This document shows, piece by piece, positions 32,916 through 44,290 of a DNA stretch of 64,000 bases. The stretch is from Escherichia phage SD2. The notes below the pieces were generated by a model, which was not told the DNA's origin, searched no databases, and worked only from the letters and a program-made list of their open reading frames with translations. The position numbers and the translations under genes are program-made. Position 1 is the first letter of the stretch. Each line of letters starts with the position of its first letter. Location: sequence record PQ821640; one strand, given 5' to 3'.

Positions 32916-32940
32916 TATTTTGAAAATTTTTATTTTTATA

Positions 32941-32955
32941 AAAAGGGGTGTGGGT
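32941..32955 (+). promoter_or_regulatory. AAAGGGGTGTG motif, copy 1
   Basis: Recurs at 44180 and 44259 at the borders of the cassette array. Confidence 0.3.
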
Positions 32956-33129
32956 TTCATGTACGGAAATTCACCCTCTGAATAATATATTCAGAGTAAA
33001 TATTATTTTGTACTCTGTTAATAAATTATTTAATTTGTTTGTTGGATTATGATATCTGGTTTTTAAAAGGCATACTATCTCTTAACTACTACTTATAACA
33101 GAACAGTAAAATCATTTTTATAAAAAGGA

Positions 33130-33340
33130 CAAAATTATTTAAAGTTTTTACAGATTTTTGGATACAAATTTTGAAAATGAAAAGTTCAAGTTTGGTCAAA
33201 ATTATTTAAAGTTTTTGTATGTATTTCTATCCAGATTTTGAAAATGAAAACTTCAATTTTTTAAAAATTCCCCAGTTTATTTAAAGTTTTTTTACCTTTT
33301 TCCGTAGAAAAATCAAAAATGAAAAGTTCAATTTCGTGTT
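33130..33340 (+). repeat. three tandem ~68-70 bp repeats (ATTTAAAGTTTTT ... ATTTTGAAAATGAAAAGTTCAA)
   Basis: Direct repeat units at about 33130, 33198 and 33266; each contains the inverted repeat TTGAA..TTCAA. Confidence 0.6.
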
Positions 33341-33349
33341 TTTATGGGT

Positions 33350-33470
33350 ATGCGTATGATAATCATTCTCATTTGTAAATGAGAATCATTATCATTTAAT
33401 TATGTAAATGATAAGCATTCTCACTAAGAGAATGAGAATCATTAGCAAATGAGAATTTTTCTCATTTGCA
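33350..33470. promoter_or_regulatory. cluster of at least 4 Fur-box-like palindromes
   Basis: ATGATAATCATTCTCATT, AATGAGAATCATTATCATT, AATGATAAGCATTCTC, AATGAGAATCATTAGCAAATGAGAA versus Fur consensus GATAATGATAATCATTATC. Confidence 0.45.
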
Positions 33471-33479
33471 GAATAACGC

Positions 33480-34100
33480 GCAGGGGCGGTGTTTGTCTCG
33501 CGCTCCCGTGTCCCCTCGCCATACAATAAGAATAGCATAACCAACAACAAAAGCAAGCGATTATTTTTATCTTTACATTTCTTTACAAATTTATTTTAGA
33601 CGAGCTACCGGCGATCAACCTTCCAACCAGTGCCCCTGGTATGTTAGCCCCGCCTTTACGCCGTGGGGGTGGCGCTTCCTCTTCTGTATGTAAAACAGTA
33701 TAAGCCCGATCCCTGGGCTTGTCAAGATTATTTTTTGTTTTCTTGCCAGGATAGGACACCTAACCAAAAATACATGTCGCCCCGTGCCCCTGGCGGGATC
33801 TTGCTTTCCCCGCCGCCACTGCAAGCCCATAAATAACCATTTACGAACGTATCAAAGTGATCTATCTCTTCCACCTTATGATCGCCCAGGTTGAGAACGG
33901 TTTCAACCTTTAAGCCCGTTGCGCTTGCTACCTGGTGCACCGTGCCGCCTTGCCAGCCCAATGAGTGCATGAGATGTAAAGGAGTATTTGTCATGGTATC
34001 GCCCTTTCTTTGATGTGCGCCCTGGTTGGCGCGGTAGAAAGATAATAGCCGTTTCCTTTATAGATAGCAAGCAAAAAAGAAATGAAAAAAGATTAAAAAA
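33480..34100. other. GC-rich compositional island
   Basis: Visibly higher GC than the flanking AT-rich sequence. Confidence 0.5.
33728..33994 (-). CDS. hypothetical protein encoded in the GC-rich island
   Basis: ORF track 88 aa; overlapping alternative frames present. Confidence 0.3.
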   Translation of the reverse strand: MTNTPLHLMHSLGWQGGTVHQVASATGLKVETVLNLGDHKVEEIDHFDTFVNGYLWACSGGGESKIPPGARGDMYFWLGVLSWQENKK

Positions 34101-34104
34101 ATGG

Positions 34105-34166
34105 TTGACGTTCCTCACCTGGTAGCGTAGTATTCATCTTGTCGAGGGGCGGCAATAGTGCCGCTC
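34105..34166 (+). promoter_or_regulatory. cassette 1: promoter (TTGACG-17-TAGTAT) + 5' hairpin GGGCGGCAATAGTGCCGCTC
   Basis: Sigma70-like boxes; hairpin starts ~8 nt after the -10. Confidence 0.6.
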
Positions 34167-34188
34167 ATAACAGAAGAGAGAAATAATC

Positions 34189-34461
34189 ATGGCATCATAT
34201 AGCGCATCAATGATCGTAGCTGGCATCACTGGTAAACCTATGCGCGGTGGCGGATCTTTCGCTAACATCAATATTGATGGACGTTTATCCCTGGACGCAG
34301 CGATCACAGTGGCACGGGAAACGTTTAAAAAAGAATGTAATTTCAATAAACAAGATTATCTCGGTTTCGCTATTGAAAAAACCGCGCGATTTGTGGATTA
34401 TAAAAGCCCGAAAATGATCGACACTACACTAAAAGCGCAAGATGTAGCGTTTTTGCTTTAA
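34189..34461 (+). CDS. hypothetical protein (cassette 1)
   Basis: ORF track 90 aa. Confidence 0.55.
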   Translation: MASYSASMIVAGITGKPMRGGGSFANINIDGRLSLDAAITVARETFKKECNFNKQDYLGFAIEKTARFVDYKSPKMIDTTLKAQDVAFLL

Positions 34462-34464
34462 GTC

Positions 34465-34524
34465 TTGACACTGAAAAATAATTTGGTAATATATACTCCA
34501 TAAGGCGGGAAATGGTTTCCCGCC
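34465..34524 (+). promoter_or_regulatory. cassette 2: promoter TTGACA + hairpin GGCGGGAAATGGTTTCCCGCC
   Basis: Consensus -35, TG-extended -10; canonical hairpin core. Confidence 0.65.
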
Positions 34525-34546
34525 AAAACAAAGAAAGGGTAACACA

Positions 34547-34909
34547 ATGAGCAAGCAAATCAATACTATCATGTTAAACCTGGTATCTTTCCGCGATGAC
34601 GTGAAAAACCTTTCGCGTGATGCAGTGGATGCACGGATCGAAAGCTATCGCACACAGATCGCAACGTTACCGCTGAAACGTGATCAACATGCCGCTAATA
34701 TGATGCTTGATGCTATGATTAAAAAGATGATTCAATGTGATCTTACCCTGGCTTATGAATATGCTGGCGATCTCTTTGTAACATATAGCAAGCCCGTTCC
34801 AGGTATGAGCACCACGGAAGAATTGCATGCCTTAAATCTGCGACAAGATGCATGGGATAACATGCGCCGTGTTATGGTATGGGTAGAAAGCGGTAAAATT
34901 TACGAATAA
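34547..34909 (+). CDS. hypothetical protein (cassette 2)
   Basis: ORF track 120 aa; RBS AAGAAAGGG. Confidence 0.55.
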   Translation: MSKQINTIMLNLVSFRDDVKNLSRDAVDARIESYRTQIATLPLKRDQHAANMMLDAMIKKMIQCDLTLAYEYAGDLFVTYSKPVPGMSTTEELHALNLRQDAWDNMRRVMVWVESGKIYE

Positions 34910-34915
34910 AAACGG

Positions 34916-34969
34916 TTGACATTGCACTAAAACCTGATAAGCTATCTTAAAGCGGGAATTGTTCCCGCT
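34916..34969 (+). promoter_or_regulatory. cassette 3: promoter TTGACA + hairpin AGCGGGAATTGTTCCCGCT
   Basis: Hairpin variant preserves pairing. Confidence 0.55.
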
Positions 34970-34987
34970 TACATAGGATAAAACTTT

Positions 34988-35134
34988 ATGAAACAATATG
35001 TAATGAGTATTCATACCAAAAACGGCGCTACTGTTACGACTCCGGCACGGTTTGCACTTGTAAACCGTTGCAAGAGACTAAAACGAGAGTTAAAAAATAA
35101 CCGTGCAACGGGCTTTAAACGCTGGGGAGGATAA
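34988..35134 (+). CDS. small basic protein (cassette 3, ~48 aa)
   Basis: Manual ORF; stop is followed by GGAGG and the TTG start of the next gene; approximate. Confidence 0.4.
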   Translation: MKQYVMSIHTKNGATVTTPARFALVNRCKRLKRELKNNRATGFKRWGG

Positions 35135-35136
35135 TC

Positions 35137-35397
35137 TTGTTTTTTCTAAAAGTTTTTGATAATGTGATCGCTTTTGAACATGCTACAACGTTCGACCTGG
35201 CGAGATACGCTATCAGGTTTAAAGATAATGTTTATCCCCGTGCTGGCGGCGGTTACACTATTTTTAATCATCGCAACGCGCAACTGACTGATGTAACTAA
35301 TCCAGATCCTGGAGTGTATCGCATAGGCTGGCTACCGTCAAAAGACGCGGCAAGCATGTTTAAGTTATGTAAACTACTAACAGAAGAGGCGAACTAA
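35137..35397 (+). CDS. hypothetical protein (TTG start)
   Basis: ORF track 86 aa; TTG start 6 nt after GGGGAGGA. Confidence 0.5.
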   Translation: MFFLKVFDNVIAFEHATTFDLARYAIRFKDNVYPRAGGGYTIFNHRNAQLTDVTNPDPGVYRIGWLPSKDAASMFKLCKLLTEEAN

Positions 35398-35398
35398 C

Positions 35399-35953
35399 AT
35401 GGGGCGTGAATATGTGATCCAGTCCTGGGTAAAGCATGACGCAAATGATCCGCGCATAATACCAGATGACATGATCGATCACATGGTGGGGTATAGCGGG
35501 GAGCAGATAGGAAATCGAGCGGCAAAGAGCAACGGCAACACCAGAACGAGATCCGTTCGCCCTGGATGGCTGGCAAATGGTAACGCTGACATTGCAAGCG
35601 CCGCAGATCCAAGCGATGACGCTAAAAATAATCCCTTGTATAACATTGATCCGGCTTTTAAGGTGTTGGAAGAGTATCCCGCTAAATTAGCCGCACTAGA
35701 TAAAGCATACGAAGAAAAACGGGTGGCATGGACTGTATACAACACCGCTAAAATGGTGCTAGATGCAAAATTGATTAAAGCCCAGGAGAAGATCAATAAA
35801 CTTGTTACCATAGCGCAAGAGGAAGACCAGGACGACCAGGAGGAAGAGGAAGAAATCATGCCTATCCTGGAAGAGGAAGAGATCCAGCCATACATGCCGA
35901 CGGAAGAGGAAAAAAGACAAGCCTTAAAAAATTATAAAAATTGTATTGTGTAA
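35399..35953 (+). CDS. hypothetical protein with acidic D/E-rich C-terminal region
   Basis: ORF track 184 aa; RBS GAAGAGG. Confidence 0.55.
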   Translation: MGREYVIQSWVKHDANDPRIIPDDMIDHMVGYSGEQIGNRAAKSNGNTRTRSVRPGWLANGNADIASAADPSDDAKNNPLYNIDPAFKVLEEYPAKLAALDKAYEEKRVAWTVYNTAKMVLDAKLIKAQEKINKLVTIAQEEDQDDQEEEEEIMPILEEEEIQPYMPTEEEKRQALKNYKNCIV

Positions 35954-35956
35954 GGC

Positions 35957-36013
35957 TTGACATATGCAAACAAGCCCCGTAATATGTACCACATAGAGCG
36001 GGGCAACGCCCCA
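35957..36013 (+). promoter_or_regulatory. cassette 4a: promoter TTGACA-17-TAATAT + hairpin GAGCGGGGCAACGCCCC, no ORF directly after
   Basis: Followed ~20 nt later by a second promoter; possible short leader or small RNA. Confidence 0.5.
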
Positions 36014-36034
36014 TAAGGTGAAATAAAAAATCAC

Positions 36035-36062
36035 TTGACACCTGAAATCAGTAAGCTATAAT
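36035..36062 (+). promoter_or_regulatory. cassette 4b: consensus promoter TTGACA-16-TATAAT
   Basis: Exact -35 and -10 hexamers. Confidence 0.65.
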
Positions 36063-36099
36063 GCTTATATAAATTAAAGCGTTACTAAGGAATAAAATC

Positions 36100-36465
36100 A
36101 TGGCTAAAAATATTAATGTTTCTGCTTATGCTACCCTGGCTAATACTGCTAAAATTGAACTATCCAGCATTGAAGCGGTACATATTAGCGCCCGTCGCTG
36201 GTTTCAAAAGTCTTATGGTAATACTTATTTCTCTTTGATGGTTGACGTTGAGATCGGCGGTAAACTGATTGAAGTCGTTAACGTTCCGTTTCATTATGGT
36301 TATGGTGATCATTTTGATACCGTTGCCCTGGAAGAGTTTAGCAAGGTTATCAACCTGGAAGGTAAAGAGTTTTCAAATTATGCTTATCTTTCCCGTTTTT
36401 GCCGTGATAATGGGATCGCTGTATACAGTCATGCAAGCGATGTTAAACGTAAAAAAGATTTATAA
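36100..36465 (+). CDS. hypothetical protein
   Basis: ORF track 121 aa. Confidence 0.55.
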   Translation: MAKNINVSAYATLANTAKIELSSIEAVHISARRWFQKSYGNTYFSLMVDVEIGGKLIEVVNVPFHYGYGDHFDTVALEEFSKVINLEGKEFSNYAYLSRFCRDNGIAVYSHASDVKRKKDL

Positions 36466-36469
36466 AAAG

Positions 36470-36535
36470 CATTGACAGCACGAATAAAAAGAGTAAAATG
36501 TTTCATATCAGGACGGGGGAACGGTTTCCCCTCCT
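36470..36535 (+). promoter_or_regulatory. cassette 5: promoter TTGACA + hairpin GGACGGGGGAACGGTTTCCCCTCC
   Basis: Hairpin variant with altered stem that still pairs. Confidence 0.55.
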
Positions 36536-36554
36536 AACAAAGAGAGAAATAAAA

Positions 36555-36737
36555 ATGGCTAAATGCACTATTTGTAAGAAAGAAATAGTATTAGTTCCAA
36601 GCGCCCGTGAACGTGCCGCTAAGTTCGGTGGCAAACCGTCAGACTATACGAAAATGTTTACTACCCATGCAGCTTGTCAAGTAGCAAAACGTTCACAAGA
36701 AAGCGTAGAATTAATGCGTAAACTTTCCAAAAAATAA
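36555..36737 (+). CDS. small protein MAKCTICKKE... (cassette 5)
   Basis: Start at Met20 of track ORF, after hairpin and RBS AAGAGAGAAA. Confidence 0.5.
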   Translation: MAKCTICKKEIVLVPSARERAAKFGGKPSDYTKMFTTHAACQVAKRSQESVELMRKLSKK

Positions 36738-36741
36738 GTAT

Positions 36742-36803
36742 TGACAAAGTATTTTATTACTATATAATGGTTTACATCGAGAGCGGGAATAGTTCCCGCC
36801 TCA
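36742..36803 (+). promoter_or_regulatory. cassette 6: promoter TTGACA-16-TATAAT + hairpin GAGCGGGAATAGTTCCCGCCTC
   Basis: Consensus boxes. Confidence 0.65.
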
Positions 36804-36823
36804 CTGAAAAAGAGATTAACATC

Positions 36824-37063
36824 ATGGCTAAATCTAAAATGTACAACGGTCACAAAAATAAAACTCATTGGAATGTAAGCCTTTGGATTAATAACGATCC
36901 AGGTTTTTATAATATGGCAAAAGAATTTATAGCCGTGAACAACAATAAAGATAACGCCGCGCGTGAAATGATGTCATTACTTAACGAAATGGGCCAAAAT
37001 ACTACGCCAGATGGCTATAAATTCAGTAAAACCAGTATCCGCGCCGCTATGGTAGGAATGTAA
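36824..37063 (+). CDS. hypothetical protein (cassette 6)
   Basis: Start at MAKSK, Met20 of track ORF. Confidence 0.5.
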   Translation: MAKSKMYNGHKNKTHWNVSLWINNDPGFYNMAKEFIAVNNNKDNAAREMMSLLNEMGQNTTPDGYKFSKTSIRAAMVGM

Positions 37064-37072
37064 TAAAAGCAG

Positions 37073-37132
37073 TTGACAACGTTTTTTAATCTGGTATAGT
37101 TTATCACATAGGGCGGGAAATGGTTTCCCGCC
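37073..37132 (+). promoter_or_regulatory. cassette 7: promoter TTGACA + TGgTATAGT extended -10 + hairpin GGGCGGGAAATGGTTTCCCGCC
   Basis: Canonical hairpin. Confidence 0.65.
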
Positions 37133-37154
37133 AAATGAAAGAAAGGTTATCATT

Positions 37155-37382
37155 ATGGCTATCGTTATTGTTCGCGTATCCGGCACGGTTGGAATCTCCC
37201 AGGTAGTAGCAGTTATCACCGAGAAGAAAGGGGATGATCTTCACTCCTCCTTGAATAGCTGGGCGGTCGCTAATTTCGGGCAATGGTCGAGCGTTGAGTA
37301 TATCGAATCCTACCAGGTGCCAACGATTAGCCTAACCGATCTGAATGTTGATCGCTTATTGTGCCTGGATGGATTAAACTAA
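37155..37382 (+). CDS. hypothetical protein (cassette 7)
   Basis: ORF track 75 aa. Confidence 0.55.
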   Translation: MAIVIVRVSGTVGISQVVAVITEKKGDDLHSSLNSWAVANFGQWSSVEYIESYQVPTISLTDLNVDRLLCLDGLN

Positions 37383-37390
37383 AAATAATC

Positions 37391-37448
37391 TTGACAAGAT
37401 AACTAAAATCAGTAAAATGTAATGCATAGGGCGGCAATAGTGCCGCTC
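37391..37448 (+). promoter_or_regulatory. cassette 8: promoter TTGACA + hairpin GGGCGGCAATAGTGCCGCTC
   Basis: Hairpin identical to cassette 1. Confidence 0.6.
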
Positions 37449-37469
37449 ATAGTAAGAGAGATTATCAAA

Positions 37470-37685
37470 ATGGCTAATATCCGCACACTGTTAAAAAATG
37501 CAAGTCAAGTTTTATTTTCAGATGACGAGTATTTCAACAAAGACATTACAGGCGTGAAAAATTTAAAAGACGTGAAGGATGTTATCGGTATCCGTGGATC
37601 TTTACGTAAAGGTGACATATACGGTAACAAGGTGCAATATAAACTATCAAAAGATTATGATTTTACTTTGACAATTATTTCATAA
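37470..37685 (+). CDS. hypothetical protein (cassette 8)
   Basis: Start at MANIRT, Met17 of track ORF. Confidence 0.5.
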   Translation: MANIRTLLKNASQVLFSDDEYFNKDITGVKNLKDVKDVIGIRGSLRKGDIYGNKVQYKLSKDYDFTLTIIS

Positions 37686-37691
37686 AACTAC

Positions 37692-37752
37692 TTGCAAACC
37701 TGGTAAAATAAAGTAAACTATATTCATTAAGGCGGTGGAATAGCCCACCGCC
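37692..37752 (+). promoter_or_regulatory. cassette 9: promoter-like TTGCAA + hairpin GGCGGTGGAATAGCCCACCGCC
   Basis: Stem differs from canonical copy on both arms (GGTGG / CCACC) and still pairs. Confidence 0.5.
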
Positions 37753-37775
37753 TAACAAAGAGAAGAGGAAACATC

Positions 37776-37946
37776 ATGATCACTTTCGCTACCCGTGAAG
37801 CCGCTCGCAACGTTGCACGTAAAGTTAACGCCGCCAACCTGGGCGCTACGCTTAAAGCCCCGGTGAAAGATGAATCAGGAAAATGGATCTTTCCTGGTCT
37901 GCGTCACGCTGATAAGCTGGGGACATTAACGTTAAAAAATAAATAA
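37776..37946 (+). CDS. small protein ~56 aa (cassette 9)
   Basis: Manual ORF, RBS AAGAGGAAA; approximate. Confidence 0.4.
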   Translation: MITFATREAARNVARKVNAANLGATLKAPVKDESGKWIFPGLRHADKLGTLTLKNK

Positions 37947-37953
37947 TATCCGC

Positions 37954-38020
37954 TTGACAGTAGCATCATTTATAAGTAAAGTAACAACAACGGCGGGAAA
38001 ATTATTGGTTATATATTGCA
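37954..38020 (+). promoter_or_regulatory. cassette 10: promoter TTGACA + degenerate hairpin remnant (GGCGGGAAAATTATTGG)
   Basis: Hairpin 3' arm lost. Confidence 0.4.
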
Positions 38021-38076
38021 AGCATGATCATAACTTTGGCAAAATATCATAACGTAGCGTAATCGAGAGGAAAAAC

Positions 38077-38214
38077 ATGAACGCATCACAGCAGATCGAA
38101 AAATTCAACCGCAGCAAGGCGCGTAAAAATTGGAACGAAGAGATCACCAAGAAAGGCGATAAGCGGAACAAAACAAAAAGAGATCGCAGCACAAAAAGAC
38201 ACTGGAACGAATAA
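38077..38214 (+). CDS. very basic 45-aa protein (K/R-rich)
   Basis: Manual ORF MNASQQIEKFNRSKARKNW...; RBS GAGAGGAAAAA; followed by terminator; approximate. Confidence 0.4.
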   Translation: MNASQQIEKFNRSKARKNWNEEITKKGDKRNKTKRDRSTKRHWNE

Positions 38215-38216
38215 CA

Positions 38217-38245
38217 AAAAGGGCGCAATAAGCGCCCTTTTAGCT
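38217..38245 (+). terminator. rho-independent terminator
   Basis: AAAAGGGCGCAATAAGCGCCCTTTT. Confidence 0.7.
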
Positions 38246-38332
38246 TATATAGAGGCTTGTTACCCATAGGCAATGGTAACGCCAGGGCAAGCCTATAAAT
38301 CAACGTTAGACGGCTTTACAGGAGCTTTAAAA

Positions 38333-38515
38333 ATGAGATTAGAAGAAATAAGCAAGGCACTAGCCCAGGGGCAAAGGTTATGCGCCCGATATCGTGATCA
38401 ATATGGCTTTATAACTAGCGGCGTGATCCTGGGGATTGAAGGCAATAAAATTTTTATTGACACGTTGAAAAACGTTGTATATAGTGACAATATAATCTCA
38501 ATAAAACATATATGA
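38333..38515 (+). CDS. hypothetical protein
   Basis: Start at MRLEEISK after AGGAG RBS, within track ORF 38273-38515. Confidence 0.45.
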   Translation: MRLEEISKALAQGQRLCARYRDQYGFITSGVILGIEGNKIFIDTLKNVVYSDNIISIKHI

Positions 38516-38523
38516 GGCAAGAA

Positions 38524-38925
38524 ATGAAAAAATTATTGATCGCTGGTTTAATCTCTTTTGGCATGGTTGGAACATCTAGCGCGGCGATATCCTCCACAGT
38601 AGCAGAATTAAGCGCCGTTGATGCAATGGAAAACGTCATGATCATTAATAACGCGATCCCCGATGAAATCATGGAGGATTCACACATGATCGCTTATGGT
38701 GCTGTTACACAATTAACGGCAAAAATAGATAAATCTATTGTTAATGGCTTAAATGAAGATGTACCATGTGAAATTATTACCAGTGTGCTAACGACTCAAA
38801 ATTTTACGCCGTGGCTAAAAAGTATTCAAAAGGTACACAGCACCGCCGCAGATCGTAGCAATGAAAAACTAGTGTCAGCACTTGCAACGTATACCCTAGC
38901 AAAATGTACCGAGATAAAAGGTTGA
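38524..38925 (+). CDS. secreted protein with signal peptide
   Basis: MKKLLIAGLISFGMVGTSSAA signal peptide; RBS GAGG. Confidence 0.5.
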   Translation: MKKLLIAGLISFGMVGTSSAAISSTVAELSAVDAMENVMIINNAIPDEIMEDSHMIAYGAVTQLTAKIDKSIVNGLNEDVPCEIITSVLTTQNFTPWLKSIQKVHSTAADRSNEKLVSALATYTLAKCTEIKG

Positions 38926-38949
38926 CAATATAGAAAGCACGTTATAAGA
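38922..38949 (+). promoter_or_regulatory. promoter TTGACA-16-TATAAG (no hairpin)
   Basis: Sigma70-like boxes upstream of 38971 ORF. Confidence 0.5.
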
Positions 38950-38970
38950 TACACAACAAAGGAGAACCAC

Positions 38971-39273
38971 ATGAACGGCATAGCTAAAACGTTTTTTCTT
39001 TTTTCTGGTGTAAATGATCCATCAATAAAAGTCGATAGTGTAAAAGAAAACAATACTATCACCGCTAAATTGTTTCAAGATGAAACAAATAACGTGCTAA
39101 TCATTAATCTTAAAGAAATAACGAAAGGTTATTATACTATTGCTTACCATGCGATCTATCATGCGGGTACTAGTGAGGAAGTGCAAACAAGCAACAACGA
39201 AAGCGCGGCGCTACCTGGTGATCTGGTGCTGGGCGTTATCAGTTTAATTGTCAATGATTTTTTTAAGGAGTAA
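38971..39273 (+). CDS. hypothetical protein
   Basis: ORF track 100 aa; RBS AAGGAGAA. Confidence 0.55.
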   Translation: MNGIAKTFFLFSGVNDPSIKVDSVKENNTITAKLFQDETNNVLIINLKEITKGYYTIAYHAIYHAGTSEEVQTSNNESAALPGDLVLGVISLIVNDFFKE

Positions 39274-39277
39274 AACC

Positions 39278-39373
39278 ATGCCCTATTTACATTTATTTTT
39301 CGGTATCTTATTGACAGGATCTTTTTTCTTCTGTATGCTTGTTTCTATTGTAAACCACGTTTTAAGACATTAA
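39278..39373 (+). CDS. tiny hydrophobic peptide (~31 aa)
   Basis: Manual ORF MPYLHLFFGILLTG...; approximate. Confidence 0.25.
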   Translation: MPYLHLFFGILLTGSFFFCMLVSIVNHVLRH

Positions 39374-39382
39374 GGAAACAGC

Positions 39383-39502
39383 ATGAAAATTATTCCCGTA
39401 CAGTATAGCGTAATAAATCCAGCATATGAGGAAGGAAGGAAAACAAGCATGGCTTTATGTTGTATTACTACTATAGCCATGTTATTATATATTGTGTTTT
39501 AA
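39383..39502 (+). CDS. tiny hydrophobic peptide (~39 aa)
   Basis: Manual ORF MKIIPVQYSV...CCITTIAMLLYIVF; approximate. Confidence 0.25.
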   Translation: MKIIPVQYSVINPAYEEGRKTSMALCCITTIAMLLYIVF

Positions 39503-39531
39503 TAGGTTTTATAGTTGTACGCTTTAAAGGC

Positions 39532-39560
39532 TTGACAATTTTTTGTTATGCTTTAAAATA
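39532..39560 (+). promoter_or_regulatory. promoter TTGACA + TAAAAT
   Basis: Followed by mini-hairpin CGGCAAAGGCCG. Confidence 0.45.
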
Positions 39561-39602
39561 TATCTTGAAAACGGCAAAGGCCGCAAACAAAAGGGTAAAA
39601 TT

Positions 39603-39926
39603 ATGAAATCTGTGATCGGTGTTTATTTGGATAACTCTGATTTTTTCTATCATCGTGCGCGTTTCCTTGATGCGATTGAAATGATAGAATCAGGCTTTAA
39701 AGAGTATCGCCTTGCACATGATGACCTGGAAGCATTACAGGGCAATAGTGTTTTTACATTGCAAGCTAAAGCACTATGTAAAAGCCGGATCGACATTGCG
39801 AGCAAAAAGATAGAACGCGGCATGTCCTGGTTACGCACCGCAGAAATTAACATGGGGCAATGGTACGGCGAAAACTTAGAAAATAAACTCACTTTTGTAA
39901 ATGTAGAAAATCTTAAAGATTATTGA
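39603..39926 (+). CDS. hypothetical protein
   Basis: Start at MKSVIG, Met21 of track ORF. Confidence 0.5.
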   Translation: MKSVIGVYLDNSDFFYHRARFLDAIEMIESGFKEYRLAHDDLEALQGNSVFTLQAKALCKSRIDIASKKIERGMSWLRTAEINMGQWYGENLENKLTFVNVENLKDY

Positions 39927-39989
39927 TTGACAGCACGCCTGATAAGGAGTATATTGTATCTCATAGAGCGGGGAAATGGTTTCCCCGCC
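39927..39989 (+). promoter_or_regulatory. cassette 11: promoter TTGACA + hairpin AGCGGGGAAATGGTTTCCCCGCC
   Basis: Hairpin variant with one extra G-C pair. Confidence 0.6.
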
Positions 39990-40008
39990 TTAACAGAAGA
40001 GATAAGAT

Positions 40009-40293
40009 ATGAAAATCACAAAAGCACTTTTCAACTATGCAGCACGTCGCGGATTATGCTTATCCGTTGAAAATTTAGGAAAAGAAGATTTTTTGTGCTT
40101 TTGGGAGCTTGAGAATGATAATGAGTGGATCTTCTCTTATTCTATCTGCAAAGATCAAAATGGTTGCTTGTTAACCTGGCACGGTAATATCTATTTGCCG
40201 GAAGAAATAAAACAAGAATTACCAGGCACGATCATGACTGAGAAACAGCTTAAGGAAGTGATCAATTTTGTAAGGCAAAACATTAAAAAATAA
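40009..40293 (+). CDS. hypothetical protein (cassette 11)
   Basis: ORF track 94 aa. Confidence 0.55.
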   Translation: MKITKALFNYAARRGLCLSVENLGKEDFLCFWELENDNEWIFSYSICKDQNGCLLTWHGNIYLPEEIKQELPGTIMTEKQLKEVINFVRQNIKK

Positions 40294-40294
40294 T

Positions 40295-40355
40295 TTGACA
40301 GTAGGCAAACAACGTAGTAAAGTTTACCACATAGGGCGGGAAATGGTTTCCCGCC
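40295..40355 (+). promoter_or_regulatory. cassette 12: promoter TTGACA + hairpin GGGCGGGAAATGGTTTCCCGCC
   Basis: Canonical hairpin. Confidence 0.65.
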
Positions 40356-40373
40356 AGAATAGAGAGAACTAAA

Positions 40374-40478
40374 ATGATTATTCTTACCATGATGTGCGCG
40401 GCGGTTATTATTCCTTTGATAACGCTTATTGTTTCTGAGATCGATGATCTTCTCTTTGAAAGAAGTTTAAAAAAGTAA
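40374..40478 (+). CDS. tiny membrane peptide (~34 aa, cassette 12)
   Basis: Manual ORF MIILTMMCAAVIIPLITLIVSE...; approximate. Confidence 0.35.
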   Translation: MIILTMMCAAVIIPLITLIVSEIDDLLFERSLKK

Positions 40479-40540
40479 TTGACAACGGCTAATAAGCTGA
40501 TAATATGTATCACATAGGGCGGGGCAATAAGGCAACGCCC
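40479..40540 (+). promoter_or_regulatory. cassette 13: promoter TTGACA-TAATAT + hairpin GGGCGGGGCAATAAGGCAACGCCC
   Basis: Hairpin variant with enlarged loop. Confidence 0.55.
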
Positions 40541-40558
40541 ACTAATGAGGGTAGCATC

Positions 40559-40663
40559 ATGTTAGAGAAAATTTTCACGGTTGTAATAGTGGGCCTGGCG
40601 TTATCGGTTGGAGTGATTGCAACTATGGCTAACATGATCCTATCTTCCCACGGTATCGGCTAA
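40559..40663 (+). CDS. tiny membrane peptide (~34 aa, cassette 13)
   Basis: Manual ORF MLEKIFTVVIVGLALSVGVIATMANMI...; approximate. Confidence 0.35.
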   Translation: MLEKIFTVVIVGLALSVGVIATMANMILSSHGIG

Positions 40664-40677
40664 AAGAGAAACACAAC

Positions 40678-41064
40678 ATGAAAACAGAAATCATTATTGA
40701 AATCATCAACGGTTATAAAGAAGCCTTTATTTTTGCTGAATCAGCAAGGGATCATGAAGGTAATTTTATTGATAACTTAGACGATTATGATTTTTCAGAT
40801 CAAGCCCATCAACGGATCATTAATGACGTAGCGGCTTATTGTGATGCCAATGATGCTGCTATCTCTGAGGCAATGAGCGACGGCGCAACAGCAAACCAGA
40901 TCGGGAATGATTTACATTTTACCCGTAACGGTCACGGCGTAGGTTTTTGGGATCGCCCTGAAATATACACTACTAACACCGCCAACCGCCTAACAAATGC
41001 AGCTAGATTAATGCCATCGGTGCATGCTTACATTGGTGAAGATAATTTGATTTATATTGAATAA
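40678..41064 (+). CDS. hypothetical acidic protein
   Basis: ORF track 128 aa. Confidence 0.55.
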   Translation: MKTEIIIEIINGYKEAFIFAESARDHEGNFIDNLDDYDFSDQAHQRIINDVAAYCDANDAAISEAMSDGATANQIGNDLHFTRNGHGVGFWDRPEIYTTNTANRLTNAARLMPSVHAYIGEDNLIYIE

Positions 41065-41070
41065 AAAGTG

Positions 41071-41129
41071 TTGACACCGATCCCCAATATGGTATTATTT
41101 ACCACGTAGGCGGGAAATGGTTTCCCGCC
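41071..41129 (+). promoter_or_regulatory. cassette 14: promoter TTGACA + hairpin GGCGGGAAATGGTTTCCCGCC
   Basis: Canonical hairpin. Confidence 0.65.
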
Positions 41130-41153
41130 AGGTAATCAAAAAAGGTAAACATT

Positions 41154-41543
41154 ATGCGCAACCTGATTTCTGTTTCTAACGTTGAAAAATTTCAATCCTT
41201 GCAGGGTATCATTAACAACGTAGCGCCTTTTTTAGTCAATGGCTTGATTGCAAAGATGAAAAATAAACATCATGCGGCATGGTCTGCTTATTGCTTTGAT
41301 AATGATGAAAAAGCGGCTGAAATGATGTTAAATATGCTTTTGGATAGTGTAGAATCATCTTTACCGGAAAACATCGCAGAAGAGATCACCTATCGTTATA
41401 ATATGGCGATCACTTACCAGGAGGTTGCGCAATTCAACATGATGGATGATGACGAACAACAGGATCAAGAAATGTTCTGGGAGTATGCAGATCGTCAATC
41501 GGCTTTTGATGAAAAGTTAGCGATGTATTATAACGAATATTAA
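41154..41543 (+). CDS. hypothetical protein (cassette 14)
   Basis: ORF track 129 aa. Confidence 0.55.
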   Translation: MRNLISVSNVEKFQSLQGIINNVAPFLVNGLIAKMKNKHHAAWSAYCFDNDEKAAEMMLNMLLDSVESSLPENIAEEITYRYNMAITYQEVAQFNMMDDDEQQDQEMFWEYADRQSAFDEKLAMYYNEY

Positions 41544-41557
41544 TACACGGTAAAAGA

Positions 41558-41585
41558 AAGGGGCGCACTAAGCGCCCTTTTTTGT
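41558..41585 (+). terminator. rho-independent terminator
   Basis: AAAGGGGCGCACTAAGCGCCCTTTTTTTG. Confidence 0.7.
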
Positions 41586-41861
41586 ATTCTTTTTTCACGA
41601 TGGAAACAACACGTAAAGAATAGGCGTAAAGGTGGCGTAAAACAGCCTAAAACCGATTATAACCGCTTAAACAAGGTAGGGATGATTAATCACCTTACCA
41701 GGATGAAAAAGCCGTTATAAAGCTATCTAGAGCGTTTAAAGCACATAGGAAATAATTTGCTTTTTATCTTGCCTTTTATTCTGCTTTTGATTATTATTAT
41801 GGAACGGGCGGCACCTGGGAGCAGGGGAAGATAATCACCGGACGATCTTATTATATATTGA

Positions 41862-41880
41862 TAGCTTCCACCTATCAAAC
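41862..41880. promoter_or_regulatory. inverted repeat TGATAGCTTCCACCTATCA
   Basis: 6-bp arms TGATAG/CTATCA; second copy at 42753. Confidence 0.4.
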
Positions 41881-41928
41881 AACAAAACATTAAAGAAATA
41901 AACTATCAAATCTTTACAATCTCACCTA

Positions 41929-41987
41929 TTGACACCGGATCGCCCTTATACTAAGATGTATCACGTAGGCGGGAAGTGGTTTCCCGC
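41929..41987 (+). promoter_or_regulatory. cassette 15: promoter TTGACA-TATACT + hairpin GGCGGGAAGTGGTTTCCCGC
   Basis: Hairpin variant. Confidence 0.6.
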
Positions 41988-42006
41988 TCAATATAGGAAT
42001 CATATC

Positions 42007-42237
42007 ATGATCGAACAAATTAAACGCGCTGAGGCTATTAACGGCAATGTGATCTACTCTGTCAGCAATAACGAAAAAGGCGTACCTTATGCAGCGGTGA
42101 TAGTACAGCCTGACGGTGATTATTGGTTTACTGTATACGGATCTTATTCTTTTGGGCGTCCAGTACATGATAAAATTTTGAAAGTAGCTAATCCCACTGG
42201 GAAGAATATCACAGTAGAAAAATTCTTTGAAAAATAA
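42007..42237 (+). CDS. hypothetical protein (cassette 15)
   Basis: Start at MIEQIK, Met27 of track ORF. Confidence 0.5.
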   Translation: MIEQIKRAEAINGNVIYSVSNNEKGVPYAAVIVQPDGDYWFTVYGSYSFGRPVHDKILKVANPTGKNITVEKFFEK

Positions 42238-42312
42238 CTTGCTTTATAGCCTCTGTTAATTTATAGTTATCGTGTAGGGCAAGCAATTTTAAACGGTAAA
42301 CGAGGAATCTCC

Positions 42313-42696
42313 ATGAGCAATATCATCAACCTGGCGGCTACTGTAAACGGTAAAGATTTTAACGGCGCTGTAGATCGTGATCCTATGTGGTACTTGTCAG
42401 TATTTAAAGGCGATCTGGTTGAAGTTAGAACAACCGAAGGGTATAGCGATGATTATAAATGCGAGATCCATTTACATAACTGGTACACGGGGAAAACTTA
42501 TGCGCTAAACCATGCGTTTATCGGGAAAATTGAATATCGCGAGATGATCGACGAAGAAACGGGGCAAGATTTTAGCGATTATGTTTATATTCGTTCAGAA
42601 ACATTAGCCGAACGTTTGATCGAGAAAATGAAAGCAAAAAATAAAATTAATTTAGCTCATTGGCTTGATATAACAAACGATCCGGCTTATAAGTAA
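42313..42696 (+). CDS. hypothetical protein
   Basis: ORF track 127 aa; RBS ACGAGGAA. Confidence 0.55.
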   Translation: MSNIINLAATVNGKDFNGAVDRDPMWYLSVFKGDLVEVRTTEGYSDDYKCEIHLHNWYTGKTYALNHAFIGKIEYREMIDEETGQDFSDYVYIRSETLAERLIEKMKAKNKINLAHWLDITNDPAYK

Positions 42697-42711
42697 ATAA
42701 CATTTCACACC

Positions 42712-42740
42712 AGGGCGCACAAAGCGCCCTTTCTTTTTTA
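42712..42740 (+). terminator. rho-independent terminator
   Basis: AGGGCGCACAAAGCGCCCTTTCTTTTTT. Confidence 0.7.
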
Positions 42741-42752
42741 CCTAAATAAAGA

Positions 42753-42772
42753 TGATAGCTTTTACCTATCAA
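42753..42772. promoter_or_regulatory. inverted repeat TGATAGCTTTTACCTATCA
   Basis: Second copy of TGATAG-N-CTATCA site, again just downstream of a terminator. Confidence 0.4.
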
Positions 42773-42939
42773 AAACGTTCACCGAAAAAAGTGAATAGAT
42801 CGCGGTATCGAGCTAATCAAGGAGCAGATGAACAACCATACCATGAAGATCATAAGGCGCTTACAACGTGTTTTAGACCGCTTATTTTTAATTTCTTCAT
42901 GTAACTATCTGGCAAAAACAGCCTTTTTCTTGTCTTTCC

Positions 42940-43020
42940 TCTTAAATGATAATCATTCTTATTTATAGCTGATTATTTATGCAATAAACTGAATAATGTA
43001 ATAATGATAATCATTCTTAA
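42940..43020. promoter_or_regulatory. two Fur-box-like sites (AAATGATAATCATTCTTAT; ATAATGATAATCATTCTTAA)
   Basis: 14-16 of 16-18 positions match Fur consensus. Confidence 0.45.
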
Positions 43021-43844
43021 CTTAAGACCATCTAACCTATAAAATAATAAGTTATCTAACTAAATTAAAACTAATTATCTCACCTTTATTTATAACTTAC
43101 TGTTACTATCTCATTGATAACCTTATATTAAACAACAATAACTAATATAAATTATTACTAAGCTAAATATAATCTATCTAACCTTTAAAACTATAATTAT
43201 AATCTATCGAATTGTTGCACAAAGTAACTATTAAATTGTTAGTAACATTACTAAATAATTAATATCCTATCTATTTATGATCTAATCTTTACCTTCCTAT
43301 TTATTACCTAAATAATCATTTCATACCGTAATCATTTCATACAATAATTATAACAAGAAATATAATTAACAAGCGTATCATTAGCAGCCTATGCCGGACA
43401 CATAGGCGGCTAATAATAACGCAACTACACACCCCACATAATAACCATCACCGATAGTTATTATTTGTGCTTATGTAGCTTGCAACAACTGCAAGCGCAA
43501 CAATATACATGGTATATTGTATTCCCTTACATTGTTGCGGTGCGTTATTATTAGCTAATGTTTGGAACATTGGCTATAATATAAGCTATCCAATAATAAA
43601 CATAGTGAATAATAACCCTGATGATCATAATGCGCCACCTTCCAGGGGGCGCTATGTGAACACAAAGAAATCTTTCTTGTCAAGAAAAATATTACCATTA
43701 TTGCGCAAAATTATTTACATCTGAATAGATGGTTTTTCATACTATTGCCCCATATAGCCTATCATTTGTTGAGCCTACTTTCTTAAAAGCGCAATAAATT
43801 AGAATTATCTTGATTTTTAGGGCGTTTTATAGTATAGAAAATAT

Positions 43845-43865
43845 GCAAATGATAATCATTATCAG
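43845..43865. promoter_or_regulatory. Fur-box-like site GCAAATGATAATCATTATCAG
   Basis: 16/17 match to GATAATGATAATCATTATC. Confidence 0.5.
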
Positions 43866-44029
43866 TTATCTTCCACGGGTGGCACTATTTCACGCAGGAT
43901 CATTTCATTTGGCAAGGTGTATATAGATGTTTAGACTTGCCAAGCCATTGATTTGCTTAGAATTTATCTGTTTTGTTGTGAGTAATGCCTTTCTTGCTCA
44001 GAAAATAATCAAAAGTCTTATAAGTCATT

Positions 44030-44062
44030 GAATGATAATGCAAATGATAATAATTCTCATTG
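44030..44062. promoter_or_regulatory. Fur-box-like tandem site GAATGATAATGCAAATGATAATAATTCTCATTG
   Basis: Overlapping GATAAT hexamer repeats. Confidence 0.4.
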
Positions 44063-44179
44063 ATATTTGAGGGGGACGGTCAGCAGAAATCGGGGGGCGC
44101 TGAAAATCGCGTTAAGCACCTCTCGCAAGCGAGCAGTATTTTGCGGCAAGTTATTGATATTATTGACTTTACGCTTATG

Positions 44180-44290
44180 AAAAGGGGGTGTGTCGAAATA
44201 AATCGGGTATACCGGAAAATTTTTGTGGCATAGATATTTATTTGTCTATATTATGTACAAAGGGGTGTGTTAAAAATATTAGGTATATAT
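44180..44290 (+). promoter_or_regulatory. two copies of AAAGGGGTGTG-N-AAATA-N-T(C/T)(G/A)GGTATA motif
   Basis: 44180-44210 and 44259-44290; upstream of the 44468 operon. Confidence 0.35.

Follow-up and report, generated by a model that had tools for sequence, protein, structure and literature searches.

Two well-described systems offer the closest comparisons for reiterated elements near a phage genome end. In phage lambda, the cosB region adjoins the cosN cut site and carries the gpNu1 recognition sites R3, R2 and R1 together with the IHF site I1. Phage T7 carries about a dozen copies of a heptamer repeat on both sides of its terminal repeat, and the function of these repeats themselves has not been firmly established. 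A different kind of reiterated motif is found in phage promoter classes, namely the middle and late promoters of T4-type phages (MotA box; TATAAATA) and the motif TggTAaAAtA, described as the 'late' motif of rV5 (PMC3606486).

The locus considered here lies within a 64,000-nucleotide stretch of Escherichia phage SD2 (PQ821640), hereafter the window, which belongs to a phi92-like myovirus (Justusliebigvirus) and is approximately 95% identical to phi92 across 14 kb. The phi92 genome, 148.6 kb in total, is annotated with a direct terminal repeat (DTR) at its left (1-343) and right (148270-148612) ends and with a T7-like DNA polymerase, and the annotation lists no small subunit of the terminase. 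The window contains the equivalent stretch a single time, as would a concatemer junction, and GTTR/AGC (the slash marking the boundary) occurs at both edges of the stretch, at 43768-43774 and 44111-44117, the right boundary falling between 44114 and 44115 and reading GTTA/AGC. In phage BME3, a 342-bp DTR was found independently by PhageTerm (PMC12210895), and the sequence record of that phage terminates in ...AATCGCGTT, written also as ...CGCGTT. The G-rich motif under study had been placed by the initial annotation at the borders of a cassette array, a description that is misleading: the right-hand copies flank the DTR, the physical end of the genome, while the left 'border' copy, copy a, lies at a gene 3' end, in the arm of a hairpin.

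Features of the locus, in window coordinates
Feature	Position	Strand	Sequence or layout	Basis or context
Copy a	32912..32952	+	CTGATATT, A/T-rich spacer, AAAAAGGGGTGTG	first two boxes as in copy b
Hairpin at copy a	32944..32979	+	GGGGUGUGGGUUUC with GGAAAUUCACCCUC	5' arm is copy a; end of gp217-223 operon
Three-helix structured element with copy d	43376..43483	-	core at 43428-43435	covariation
d', diverged inverted second element	43486..43625	+		covariance model R1; head-to-head with the first element
DTR equivalent	43772-44114		343 bp	phi92 annotation and sequence
Second IHF core match	43941-43953	-		within DTR
Unit e	44060..44117	+	TTGATATT (44060), G-run 44092-44097, GAAAATCGCGTTA/AGC	in DTR, right edge
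IHF core consensus match	44147..44159	-	TATCAATAACTTG	between unit e and copy b
Copy b, full module	44156..44211	+	GATATT-N25-AAAAGGGGGTGTG-N-GGGTATA	three-box pattern match
Copy c, full module	44233..44289	+	GATATT-N25-AAAGGGGTGTG-N-GGTATATA	three-box pattern match

The G-rich core and the three-box module

The three strings on which the motif had been based are present in the window as described (AAAAAGGGGTGTGGG at 32940, AAAAGGGGGTGTGTCGAAATAAATCGGGTATA at 44180 and CAAAGGGGTGTGTTAAAAATATTAGGTATATA at 44258), with AAAGGGGTGTG occurring at 32942 and 44259 and AAGGGGGTGTG at 44182, and the G-rich core attributed to them, GGGGTGTG, is exact at all three sites. This core has four exact matches in the window (32945, 44185 and 44262 on the plus strand and 43428 on the minus strand) against 0.78 expected, a number reached in 0 of 100 shuffles; the minus-strand match, copy d, is a new fourth copy that was missing from the earlier description. 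All four are located in the non-coding stretches 32916-33614 and 42697-44467, which together amount to about 4% of the window; the motif is non-random. When up to one mismatch is allowed, AAAGGGGTGTG has four matches where 0.87 are expected (four arise in 2 of 100 shuffles), the fourth of which, at 25221 in coding DNA, is probably due to chance. A motif search across the whole genome, the check that the initial annotation had itself put forward, revealed in the complete 148.6-kb phi92 sequence only four copies of the core, all syntenic with those of the window. The 8-mer that a and d have in common with the other copies could be due to shared ancestry or to a shared factor.

The downstream AAATA...GGTATA segment noted for the two right-hand copies is real, and forms part of a larger, 56-57-nt pattern in which GATATT is followed after about 31 bp by a G-run plus TG and, after about a further 22 bp, by GGTATA, so that the boxes are spaced by approximately three and two helical turns. 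Copies b and c are two instances of this module (GATATT-N22-28-GGGGTG-N13-18-TATA), and are the two matches found in the window against 0.00 expected; their local alignment yields z = 7.4, and they start 42 and 119 bp, respectively, past the DTR boundary (distances also given as 67 and 146 bp), which places them just within the left end of the phage genome. The array that they form was not called by Tandem Repeats Finder. Among 118 loci, the three-box pattern is found only in terminal regions of Stephanstirmvirinae, with 1-2 sites in each when overlapping registers are taken once, and it was not found in the rest of the phi92 genome, outside the terminal region. The module is present in the terminal region of every relative examined, namely Justusliebigvirus, Phapecoctavirus, KP2025-like phages, L095 and 05F01. 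Copy b is kept in Justusliebigvirus, in KP2025 and L106, in L095 and in 05F01, its spacing being fixed across five lineages while the spacer has otherwise diverged, and is degenerate in Phapecoctavirus; for copy c, a 45-nt block is near-identical in Phapecoctavirus DE16, ukendt and L030, and the palindrome ATAGGGAAATCCTAT stands 3' of it at 44301-44315. At one site, the length of the G-run varies from G3 to G6 among near-identical phages, which would be surprising for a site with strict phasing, unless it stems from homopolymer sequencing errors.

A further unit, e, displays the box order and spacing of the module within the DTR itself, and its last box contains the right DTR boundary, GTTA/AGC. 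Its alignment with copy b yields z = 3.7 (p = 0.008), and it reads GGGGGTG or GGGGTGG in KP2025 and L095. The overall likeness between e and b is modest. In the aligned lineages, the elements around the terminus follow a conserved order: a Fur-like box, e, a hairpin, an IHF-like core, b and an ATAGG..CCTAT palindrome. Matches to the IHF core stand on either side of unit e; the window holds 13 of these against 8 expected, and they are therefore weak on their own, with the consensus kept at both sites in KP2025 or L106 and, at the site internal to the DTR, also in L095 and DE16. At the opposite edge of the repeat, the left-boundary motif TTGTTGAGC is reiterated outward in KP2025, DE16 and L095.

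It is improbable that only b and c are related, through a local duplication, and that a and d match by chance or as a compositional by-product of G-rich hairpin arms in A/T-rich spacers, leaving the motif with no function of its own. The contexts do differ, a being a hairpin arm and d a helix plus junction; the G-run of d is lost in KP2025, L022 and the paralogue d', that of a is down to GG in ukendt, G-run length is variable, and AAAGGGG also starts ordinary terminators here, at 41557 and 56052. These points are opposed by the confinement of four of four core copies to so small a part of the window, at a number that no shuffle reaches, by the fixed spacing with which b is kept in five lineages, and by the GATATT plus spacer that a has in the manner of b (five matches to the two-box pattern against 0.32 expected; local alignment of a with b, z = 5.2).

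Structured elements at copies a and d

Copy a has no third box, and the TGA in its CTGATATT ends the gp223 homologue. It stands at the gene 3' end in a convergent intergenic region, where the most plausible reading is a terminator-like hairpin that closes the gp217-223 operon, with copy a as its G-rich arm. The hairpin, which is stable, G+C-rich and directly 3' of the stop codon, folds at -24 kcal/mol (z = -3.7; equalled by 0 of 200 shuffles), and a second, A/U-rich hairpin follows at 32976-32996. At the homologous position of the Klebsiella phage 05F01 and of Phapecoctavirus ukendt, an A-run and a G-run are kept in a different sequence, with a hairpin and U-tract in each (z = -5.2 and -3.9, respectively). 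The A-run, the G-rich 5' arm, the strong hairpin after a stop codon and the convergent setting are all features of intrinsic terminators, as are the U-tracts of the two homologues. Copy a departs from them in that its stem is followed by UGAAUAAUAU, with no clean U-run, and in its 7-nt loop, which contains AUG; past the stem, the window reads UGAAUAAUAUAUUC, 05F01 reads ACAUUUUAUAUUUCAUUUU and ukendt reads UGUUAUUUUAU. A terminator scan of the window did not list this hairpin.

Copy d belongs to a different structured element, in which the TGTG half of the motif is located in helix P1 and the G-run in the junction. In this element 91.6% of cells are paired and eight pairs show compensatory changes, the covariation score being 0.213 versus 0.113 and reached by 0 of 500 shuffles; U.G pairs are invariant on the minus strand. 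The neighboring element d' matches covariance model R1 over its full length (30.5 bits, E = 8e-6), as its phi92 homologue does more strongly (38.9 bits, E = 1.5e-8), and has CCC in place of the G-run of the first element. No Rfam 15 model matched anywhere in the window at its gathering score, or within 42600-44600 at E <= 1.

These structures evoke the question of whether the motif acts in RNA, as a G-rich, Shine-Dalgarno-like segment (the 16S 3' end can pair with AAGGGGGUG) that forms hairpin arms or pairs with CACCUC-like stretches. Non-coding leaders would then be affected in their termination, their stability or their binding of ribosomes. In favor of such a role are the strong hairpin in which copy a is the 5' arm and CACCCUC the 3' arm, the hairpin kept in 05F01 with GGGGGUGGGGUG and CACUCACCUCCC, the strand-specific U.G pairs of the covariation-supported element around d, and the pairing by RNAalifold of the G box of b with GCACCUCUC at the DTR boundary. 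This last pairing, however, amounts to only -8.8 kcal/mol and has no compensatory change, and the folding of b and c is not significant (z = -1.4 and +0.9). None of a, b, c and d is followed 5-10 nt downstream by a start codon of a conserved ORF: b, c and d have no start codon at Shine-Dalgarno spacing, and the properly spaced ATG of copy a opens an 8-codon ORF only. In phi92, a difference in G-run length interrupts the 35-codon GTG frame that extends from b into c. Evidence of a promoter is absent, and the conserved distances to GATATT and GGTATA are a feature of the DNA type. A role in RNA is quite improbable.

Promoter-like features

The initial annotation had stated that the motif is not a sigma70 pattern, and the motif itself indeed goes unlisted in sigma70 scans. 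Closest to it are GTGGCA-18-TATTAT (44225-44254; 9/12 matches, not conserved in DE16) and TTAAAA-17-AATAAT (44270-44298; 9/12), which lies just 3' of the G box of c. The same annotation had proposed a transcription-factor recognition site or a middle or late promoter class. A site recognized in DNA by a protein is still the likeliest kind of function, whereas the promoter class is unsupported, because the core is present only at four syntenic phi92 sites and late genes carry sigma70-type promoters. TTGACA/TATAAT-type promoters were found upstream of the terminase, portal, tail and nucleotide-metabolism genes, and structural and replication genes likewise have such ordinary promoters, as stated also for rV5 (PMC3606486). 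With T4-type middle and late promoters the module does have in common a non-sigma70 box at about -35 and an A/T-rich, TATA-like box, and GGTATATATA loosely resembles the rV5 motif. The T4 and rV5 classes are dispersed, however, with tens of copies upstream of middle and late genes, whereas the motif here amounts to two full and two partial copies, none of them upstream of such genes; a middle or late class fails on that part of the initial annotation's own refuting condition that concerns further copies, phi92 having none beyond the four syntenic ones and none of these preceding a middle or late gene. No homologues of MotA, AsiA, gp55 or gp33 have been reported for this phage group (PMC3606486).

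What survives of the earlier proposal is a narrower and unlikely one, in which b and c, and perhaps a, would be unusual promoters or operators of the left-end operon, with the G box in place of a -35 element and GGTATA as a -10-like element, and with a phage- or host-encoded factor recognizing the G box. The spacing GGGGTG-N14-17-TATA is that of -35 and -10 elements in all lineages, the third box of 05F01 is TATAGT, and copy c overlaps a weak, conserved GTGT(T/C)A-17-TAG(A/G)AT pair; moreover, as in the early cassettes, the predicted 5' end has a palindrome, the one 3' of c, and b and c are the last conserved elements ahead of the first left-end gene, whichever gene follows. On the other hand, there are just two full three-box sites in 148.6 kb, and sigma70 scans find nothing above 9/12 at b or c. 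In most lineages, the final base of the third box is A, C or G in place of the invariant T (L095 reads TACGGG), and unit e combines the same geometry with TTAAGC, which does not resemble a -10 element. A more conventional candidate promoter, TTGCAT-16-TATAGT, stands nearer to gp001, at approximately 44383-44410, and L095 has TTGACA-17-TAGGCT ahead of its first gene. Copy a, finally, is poorly placed for a promoter because it lies at a gene 3' end facing a convergent gene and forms a hairpin arm.

Possible roles in terminus formation and packaging, and an E. coli island

The module stands less than about 200 bp from the mapped genome end, with unit e spanning the DTR boundary; it is reiterated, is kept with the terminus in relatives and is absent elsewhere in phi92, as would be expected of terminase-associated repeats. 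The preferred, though tentative, reading of the sequence comparisons is that copies b, c and e are recognition modules for terminus formation and packaging. Each module would serve as a recognition unit for the proteins that make genome ends and start packaging, the candidate binders being a terminase small-subunit function or an accessory protein, assisted by IHF-type bending. What the sequences show directly is the geometry of the boxes, their conservation, their confinement to the terminus and the coincidence with the mapped DTR boundary, from which protein binding and the role in packaging are inferred. Unit e would be the founding copy, with its third box, GTTA/AGC, as the genome-end cut site that e positions, and b and c would be uncleaved copies that load extra protein and set the direction of packaging.

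Such an arrangement would resemble lambda cosB in having several short recognition elements within about 150 bp on one side of a terminase cut, an IHF-type site among them, and in the location of the elements on the side from which packaging would proceed. The opposite end, with the early-gene array, would therefore be packaged last and ejected first. The two systems differ in their ends (343-bp direct terminal repeats here, cohesive ends in lambda), in the size of the elements (three-box modules of about 56 nt, as opposed to R sites of 16 bp) and in the small terminase subunit, for which phi92 has no annotated gene, the binding to the module being putative; no sequence similarity to lambda cos was found. 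The SRL/SRR repeats of T7 (CCTAAAG-type) and the T3/T7 pac elements likewise belong to short-DTR phages with motifs reiterated in non-coding DNA just outside the DTR, and the T7-like DNA polymerase of phi92 is a further point of resemblance. In contrast to T7, two to three long modules stand here at the right of the DTR, with TTGTTGAGC reiterated on the left in some lineages. A role in packaging leaves some copies unexplained, because a is 11 kb from the terminus and d lies on the opposite strand in a structured element, and GGGGTG-N16-TATA, being spaced like a -35/-10 pair, leaves some probability for an unusual promoter.

Unit e also occurs outside the phages. A 40-nt stretch of it, ATCGGGGGGCGCTGAAAATCGCGTTAAGCACCTCTCGCAA, is identical (40/40) in an unrelated E. 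coli island of about 20 kb, located at thrW and present in 1090 of 5426 complete E. coli genomes. Along with iterons, the island has a capsid gene and one for an O-like initiator, but the stretch inspected contains no gene annotated as terminase. The island has unit e but neither b nor c, which are therefore not required wherever e functions. Its unit e adjoins the O-like replication initiator gene and the iterons, a setting that indicates an origin as much as packaging. The modules would then be parts of replication origins, with G-clusters adjoining A/T-rich repeats, hairpins and host-factor sites and aiding the start of DNA synthesis, for instance by R-loop or primase-signal priming. In both non-coding regions of the window the G motif comes first, followed by a hairpin, A/T-rich repeats over about 300 bp and then Fur-like boxes; in the island, whose non-coding region begins beside the initiator gene, unit e is followed by the iterons and an A/T-rich stretch; and d makes with d' an inverted pair of three-helix elements similar to single-strand initiation signals. 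Against this, the phage group has no mapped origin, skew changes track the direction of transcription (as also in the rV5 paper, PMC3606486), no initiator for these boxes is identified in the phage, and the coincidence of the third box of unit e with the DTR boundary would be left unexplained; an origin function is very unlikely.

Returning to packaging, there is a slim chance, judged from sequence, that phi92-like virulent phages have the module as their packaging signal and that the island carries it as a means of being packaged by these phages. If this were true, the island would be a satellite of a virulent myovirus family.

Distribution of the G-rich core and its relation to promoters

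The region between 32000 and 46000 is ~95% identical to phi92, muut, ESCO8 and other Justusliebigvirus phages (Stephanstirmvirinae), and lies in a window whose genes are carried by the minus strand up to ~28.6 kb and by the plus strand from 28.65 to 55.6 kb. The "cassette array" corresponds to the phi92 early region gp225-gp248, in which a separate TTGACA/TATAAT promoter serves every small gene, together with a hairpin of the GGCGGGAAATGGTTTCCCGCC type and a ribosome binding site. The three G-rich strings that the initial annotation had quoted from the borders of this array are all present in the window. A search for the 11-mer with at most one mismatch yields four matches in the window (0.87 expected), while the core GGGGTGTG displays four exact matches against 0.78 expected, a number that was reached in none of 100 shuffles. 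One of these, copy d on the minus strand, is additional to the three already described, and all four are located within two non-coding stretches that represent ~4% of the window (Table). The motif is real and non-random. The length of its G-run at a single site varies from G3 to G6 among near-identical genomes; phi92 carries G6 at b and G5 at c, and contig L013 carries G3 at c.

It had been proposed that the motif could be a transcription factor site or represent a middle or late promoter class. In the assembled complete phi92 record (148,612 bp), the only occurrences of GGGGTGTG are four copies at positions syntenic with a-d, and the regions upstream of the portal gene, gp121, gp128, gp135, gp108 and others harbor ordinary TTGACA-N17-TATAAT-like promoters. 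The genome of phage rV5 has sigma70-type promoters throughout, and homologues of T4 gp33, gp45 and gp55 were not found in it (PMC3606486). The genome-wide search called for by the initial annotation has thus produced essentially no further copies, and a dispersed promoter class is rejected on the basis of the phi92 counts together with the ordinary promoters that precede late genes.

Features of the window that relate to the G-rich core and to the genome terminus (DTR, direct terminal repeat)
Feature	Position	Strand	Remark
Stop codon of gp223 homologue	32913-32915
First non-coding stretch	32916-33614
Copy a	32942 (core 32945)	+
Hairpin	32944-32979		5' arm is copy a; z = -3.7
Direct repeats	33114-33334		three, ~70 nt each; AAATTATTTAAAGTTTTT ... 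TTTTGAAAATGAAAAGTTCAA
Fur-box clusters	33355-33470; 42945-43019; 43845-43865; 44043-44060
"Cassette array"	~34100-42700
Second non-coding stretch	42697-44467
Unlisted ORF	42828-42971	+	47 codons
Match to E. coli island	42872-42893
Structured element d	43376-43483	-	contains copy d
Copy d	43428	-
Element d'	43486-43625	+	abuts d
Left DTR boundary motif	43768-43774		TTGTTG/AGCC
DTR	43772-44114
Fur box AAATGATAATCATTATC	43847		perfect 15-mer core
IHF-core matches	43941-43953; 44147-44159	-
Unit e	44060-44117		cleaved module copy
Right DTR boundary motif	44111-44117		GCGTTA/AGCA
Copy b	44182 (core 44185)	+
Copy c	44259 (core 44262)	+
Palindrome ATAGGGAAATCCTAT	44301-44315		ATAG-N7-CTAT
First left-end gene	44468-44935

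A three-box module at the genome terminus

The annotated DTRs of phi92 (343 bp; 1-343 and 148270-148612) served to place the DTR in the window, whose left boundary reads ...TTTGTTG/AGCCTAC and whose right boundary reads ...ATCGCGTTA/AGCACCTCTCGC; the window therefore corresponds to a concatemer-junction form. Independently, the DTRs of phage BME3 are reported to be 342 bp long by PhageTerm (PMC12210895), and 342 nt back from the end of its record (...GAAAATCGCGTT) the same AGCCTAC start is encountered. GTTR/AGC, common to both boundaries, is a candidate terminase nicking consensus. The left-boundary motif TTGTTGAGC is tandemly repeated just outside the DTR in KP2025, DE16 and L095, and ATTTGTTG is present as four repeats in BME3. 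Copies b and c, which are found 67 and 146 bp beyond the right DTR boundary, lie just inside the left end of virion DNA and upstream of the first left-end gene. What had been regarded as a border of the array is thus the genome end, and the motif, as judged from its sequence context, would be assigned to the terminal control region of this DTR phage, one of its copies forming a hairpin arm.

Copies b and c resemble each other well beyond the core (local alignment z = 7.4); since Tandem Repeats Finder calls no repeat on them, this relationship rests on local alignment and pattern statistics. When all copies are anchored on GGTG, a GATATT box appears ~31 bp upstream. The pattern GATATT-N20-30-GGGTG has five matches against 0.32 expected, three of which are a, b and c, while GATATT-N22-28-GGGGTG-N13-18-TATA identifies exactly b and c in the window (0.00 expected). 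Among 118 loci, this three-box pattern is present only in the terminal regions of relatives (muut, phi92, W22, PaulScherrer, KP2025, DE16, ukendt and 05F01, as well as IMG/VR contigs L009, L013 and L030 and metagenome contigs L064, L077 and L106), and phi92 has no other such site; the copy in L095, identified by eye, falls outside the exact pattern because its third box is TACGGG. The boxes are separated by ~31 and ~22 bp, that is, three and two helical turns. KP2025-like phages, L095 and 05F01 have one module copy, and Justusliebigvirus and Phapecoctavirus (b degenerate) have two.

A further unit, e, is located inside the DTR and consists of TTGATATT (44060), N24, GGGGGGCG (44092), CTGAAAATCGCG and TTA/AGC, so that the DTR boundary itself forms the third box. 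Its box order and spacing are those of b (alignment z = 3.7, p = 0.008), and its G box reads GGGGGTG in KP2025 and GGGGTGG in L095. The order of Fur-like box, e, small hairpin, ATTGATATTATTGAC, G box, GGTATA box and ATAGG..CCTAT palindrome is conserved in five lineages. Two IHF-core matches keep their consensus in other lineages, the pattern by itself not being enriched in the window (13 matches vs 8 expected).

A role of b and c in terminus recognition and packaging provides the best fit to these facts, although it is put forward tentatively, both binding and function being inferred. Unit e would position the cut, and b and c would provide additional binding modules, not cleaved, on the side where packaging would start out. 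Packaging would end with the early array at the opposite (right) end, which would be the first DNA to be ejected, an order that would suit its strong host-type promoters. Cos site cosB of phage lambda is composed of R sites plus an IHF site, to which the module copies could be likened, and the T7 terminal repeat is flanked by short repeats, as the DTR is by b and c. An unusual promoter or operator at b and c is an unlikely explanation. In its favor are the promoter-type spacing of GGGGTG-N16-TATA and the weak, conserved GTGTTA-17-TAGAAT pair with which c overlaps; against it are the poor quality of the -10-like box, the lack of fit of unit e, the existence of only two sites and the presence of better candidates closer to the first gene.

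Several other identities were considered for the motif and rejected. Scans and by-eye hexamers for a sigma70 promoter gave inconsistent spacers and -10 boxes without the final T, and a reading of TGATATTAT or TGATATTTT as an extended -10 element can be applied to a and b but to neither c nor e. By-eye inspection revealed no fit to CRP, DnaA, ArcA, OxyR or Ter-like sites, and Chi-like end protection was dismissed by reasoning, the motif differing from GCTGGTGG and having the wrong orientation for the nearby ends. No conserved ORF accompanies a Shine-Dalgarno or small-ORF role, and no known RNA family matches in Rfam. Conserved RNA structure around b is weak (-8.8 kcal/mol), and the helix that includes its G box shows no compensatory changes; a role of the motif at the RNA level is held to be improbable. 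Lineage-specific concerted variation of a and b is suggested by ukendt, in which the G-run is short at both sites, but is not consistent in 05F01.

The terminal region presents other features. The palindrome directly after copy c is conserved in DE16 and L095 (ATAGGGAATTCCTAT), degenerate in KP2025 and duplicated in L009 and L013, and could serve the left-end operon as an operator or 5' hairpin. Dense clusters of near-consensus Fur boxes are found within the DTR as well as in each of the two non-coding regions: pattern ATGATAATCATTATC, with at most three mismatches, has 33 matches against 4.8 expected, 16 of them in the clusters, and the box that adjoins unit e is kept in KP2025, DE16, L095 and L106. 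This suggests iron- or Fur-dependent control, or that Fur serves the genome end as an architectural protein. The first left-end gene encodes a protein only ~65% identical to phi92 gp001 and 76% to its phiWec188 homologue, and several close relatives carry, between copy c and this gene, a ~400-bp insertion or a different first gene; these differences mark the stretch just inside the genome end as a recombination hot spot.

Copies a and d

Copy a, which forms one arm of a hairpin, begins 26 nt past the stop codon that ends the gp223 homologue, between this gene and the minus-strand gp224 that converges on it. The equivalent place is occupied in ukendt by a hairpin plus U-tract (z = -3.9), and in 05F01 by a hairpin that differs in sequence and is likewise followed by a U-tract (z = -5.2); in view of these three hairpins, copy a is best read as the arm of a predicted terminator-like hairpin. 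It has the GATATT box and spacer in common with b (z = 5.2) and does not carry the third box; this likeness may reflect common descent or a common factor. Between copy a and the neighboring Fur-box cluster lie three direct repeats of a type also encountered in ukendt and 05F01.

The sequence around copy d is conserved in all lineages, and folds on the minus strand into three helices with eight compensatory pairs and 91.6% of cells paired. Its covariation score (0.213 vs 0.113) was reached by none of 500 shuffles, and slid controls were far lower. Invariant U.G pairs indicate that the functional strand would be the motif-bearing minus strand, as RNA or single-stranded DNA. Within this element the motif is divided between helix P1, which includes its TGTG half, and the junction, which holds the G-run; the G-run is not conserved in KP2025 or L022. 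A covariance model of the structure detected a diverged, inverted second copy, d', which has no G-run (E = 8e-6 in the window, 1.5e-8 in phi92); it found only d and d', with no copy at a, b or c, and Rfam has no match for either. The conserved three-helix structure, the loss of the G-run and its absence from d' suggest that d is probably a separate element whose possession of the core is coincidental. That the motif at both a and d is due to chance, or is a relic, seems distinctly unlikely. The head-to-head d/d' pair (~110-140 nt each, ~290-400 bp left of the DTR) may represent new non-coding RNAs or single-strand initiation signals.

The inverted arrangement of a and d on either side of the array, and the presence of a resolvase/invertase in phi92, had evoked invertase crossover sites; this idea was rejected, since a and d are not similar past the core (z = 0.4) and the best-matching relatives listed align in one orientation. 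Directly after the last early-array terminator lies an unlisted ORF that overlaps a Fur box, has a good ribosome binding site (AAGGAGCAG ATG) and encodes the hydrophobic peptide MNNHTMKIIRRLQRVLDRLFLISSCNYLAKTAFFLSFLLNDNHSYL; a segment within it matches the E. coli island described below.

An E. coli island and the biology of the genome end

A scan of IMG/VR and metagenomes with the DTR-end 17-mer returned mostly one element, an island of ~20 kb that extends from thrW (proA side) to yagU and is present in 1090 of 5426 complete E. coli genomes (for example L028, NZ_OZ547117.1 4732113-4759113, with unit e at ~13440-13515; also loci L010-L025 and many of L031-L115). Island and phage have in common TGATATTTGGGG and the 40-nt ATCGGGGGGCGCTGAAAATCGCGTTAAGCACCTCTCGCAA (40/40 nt identical), as well as two weaker collinear matches in the same non-coding region. 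The island encodes integrases, a major capsid protein, a P22 gp16-like protein and PerC. Its unit e lies within a 2.5-kb non-coding region that carries TGTGTAAT repeats, with TATTTATRGC iterons after e and an O-like replication initiator gene at its edge; b, c and the left-boundary motif are absent from the island. These observations are compatible with either a borrowed packaging signal or a shared origin-type region, and the island may be a satellite or relic that shares the packaging/origin region of phi92-like phages. That the modules themselves are an origin component, to which the island context and the d/d' pair lend some weight, is considered very unlikely.

A packaging-type module is in itself no surprise in a DTR phage, and the Fur-box clusters, the d/d' pair and the island with its cut-site module may merit more attention than the motif. 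If the module is indeed the end-formation and packaging signal, the array "border" motif would move from transcription control to genome-end biology, and the informative experiments would therefore change to read-start mapping and terminase footprints rather than the mapping of transcription starts alone. It would also define the cis-acting pac region of the Stephanstirmvirinae, which would aid the orientation and annotation of their genomes, many of which have been deposited permuted, as well as the engineering of broad-host-range phi92-like therapeutic phages and the packaging of foreign DNA into such phages, and would allow elements that borrow the signal to be recognized.
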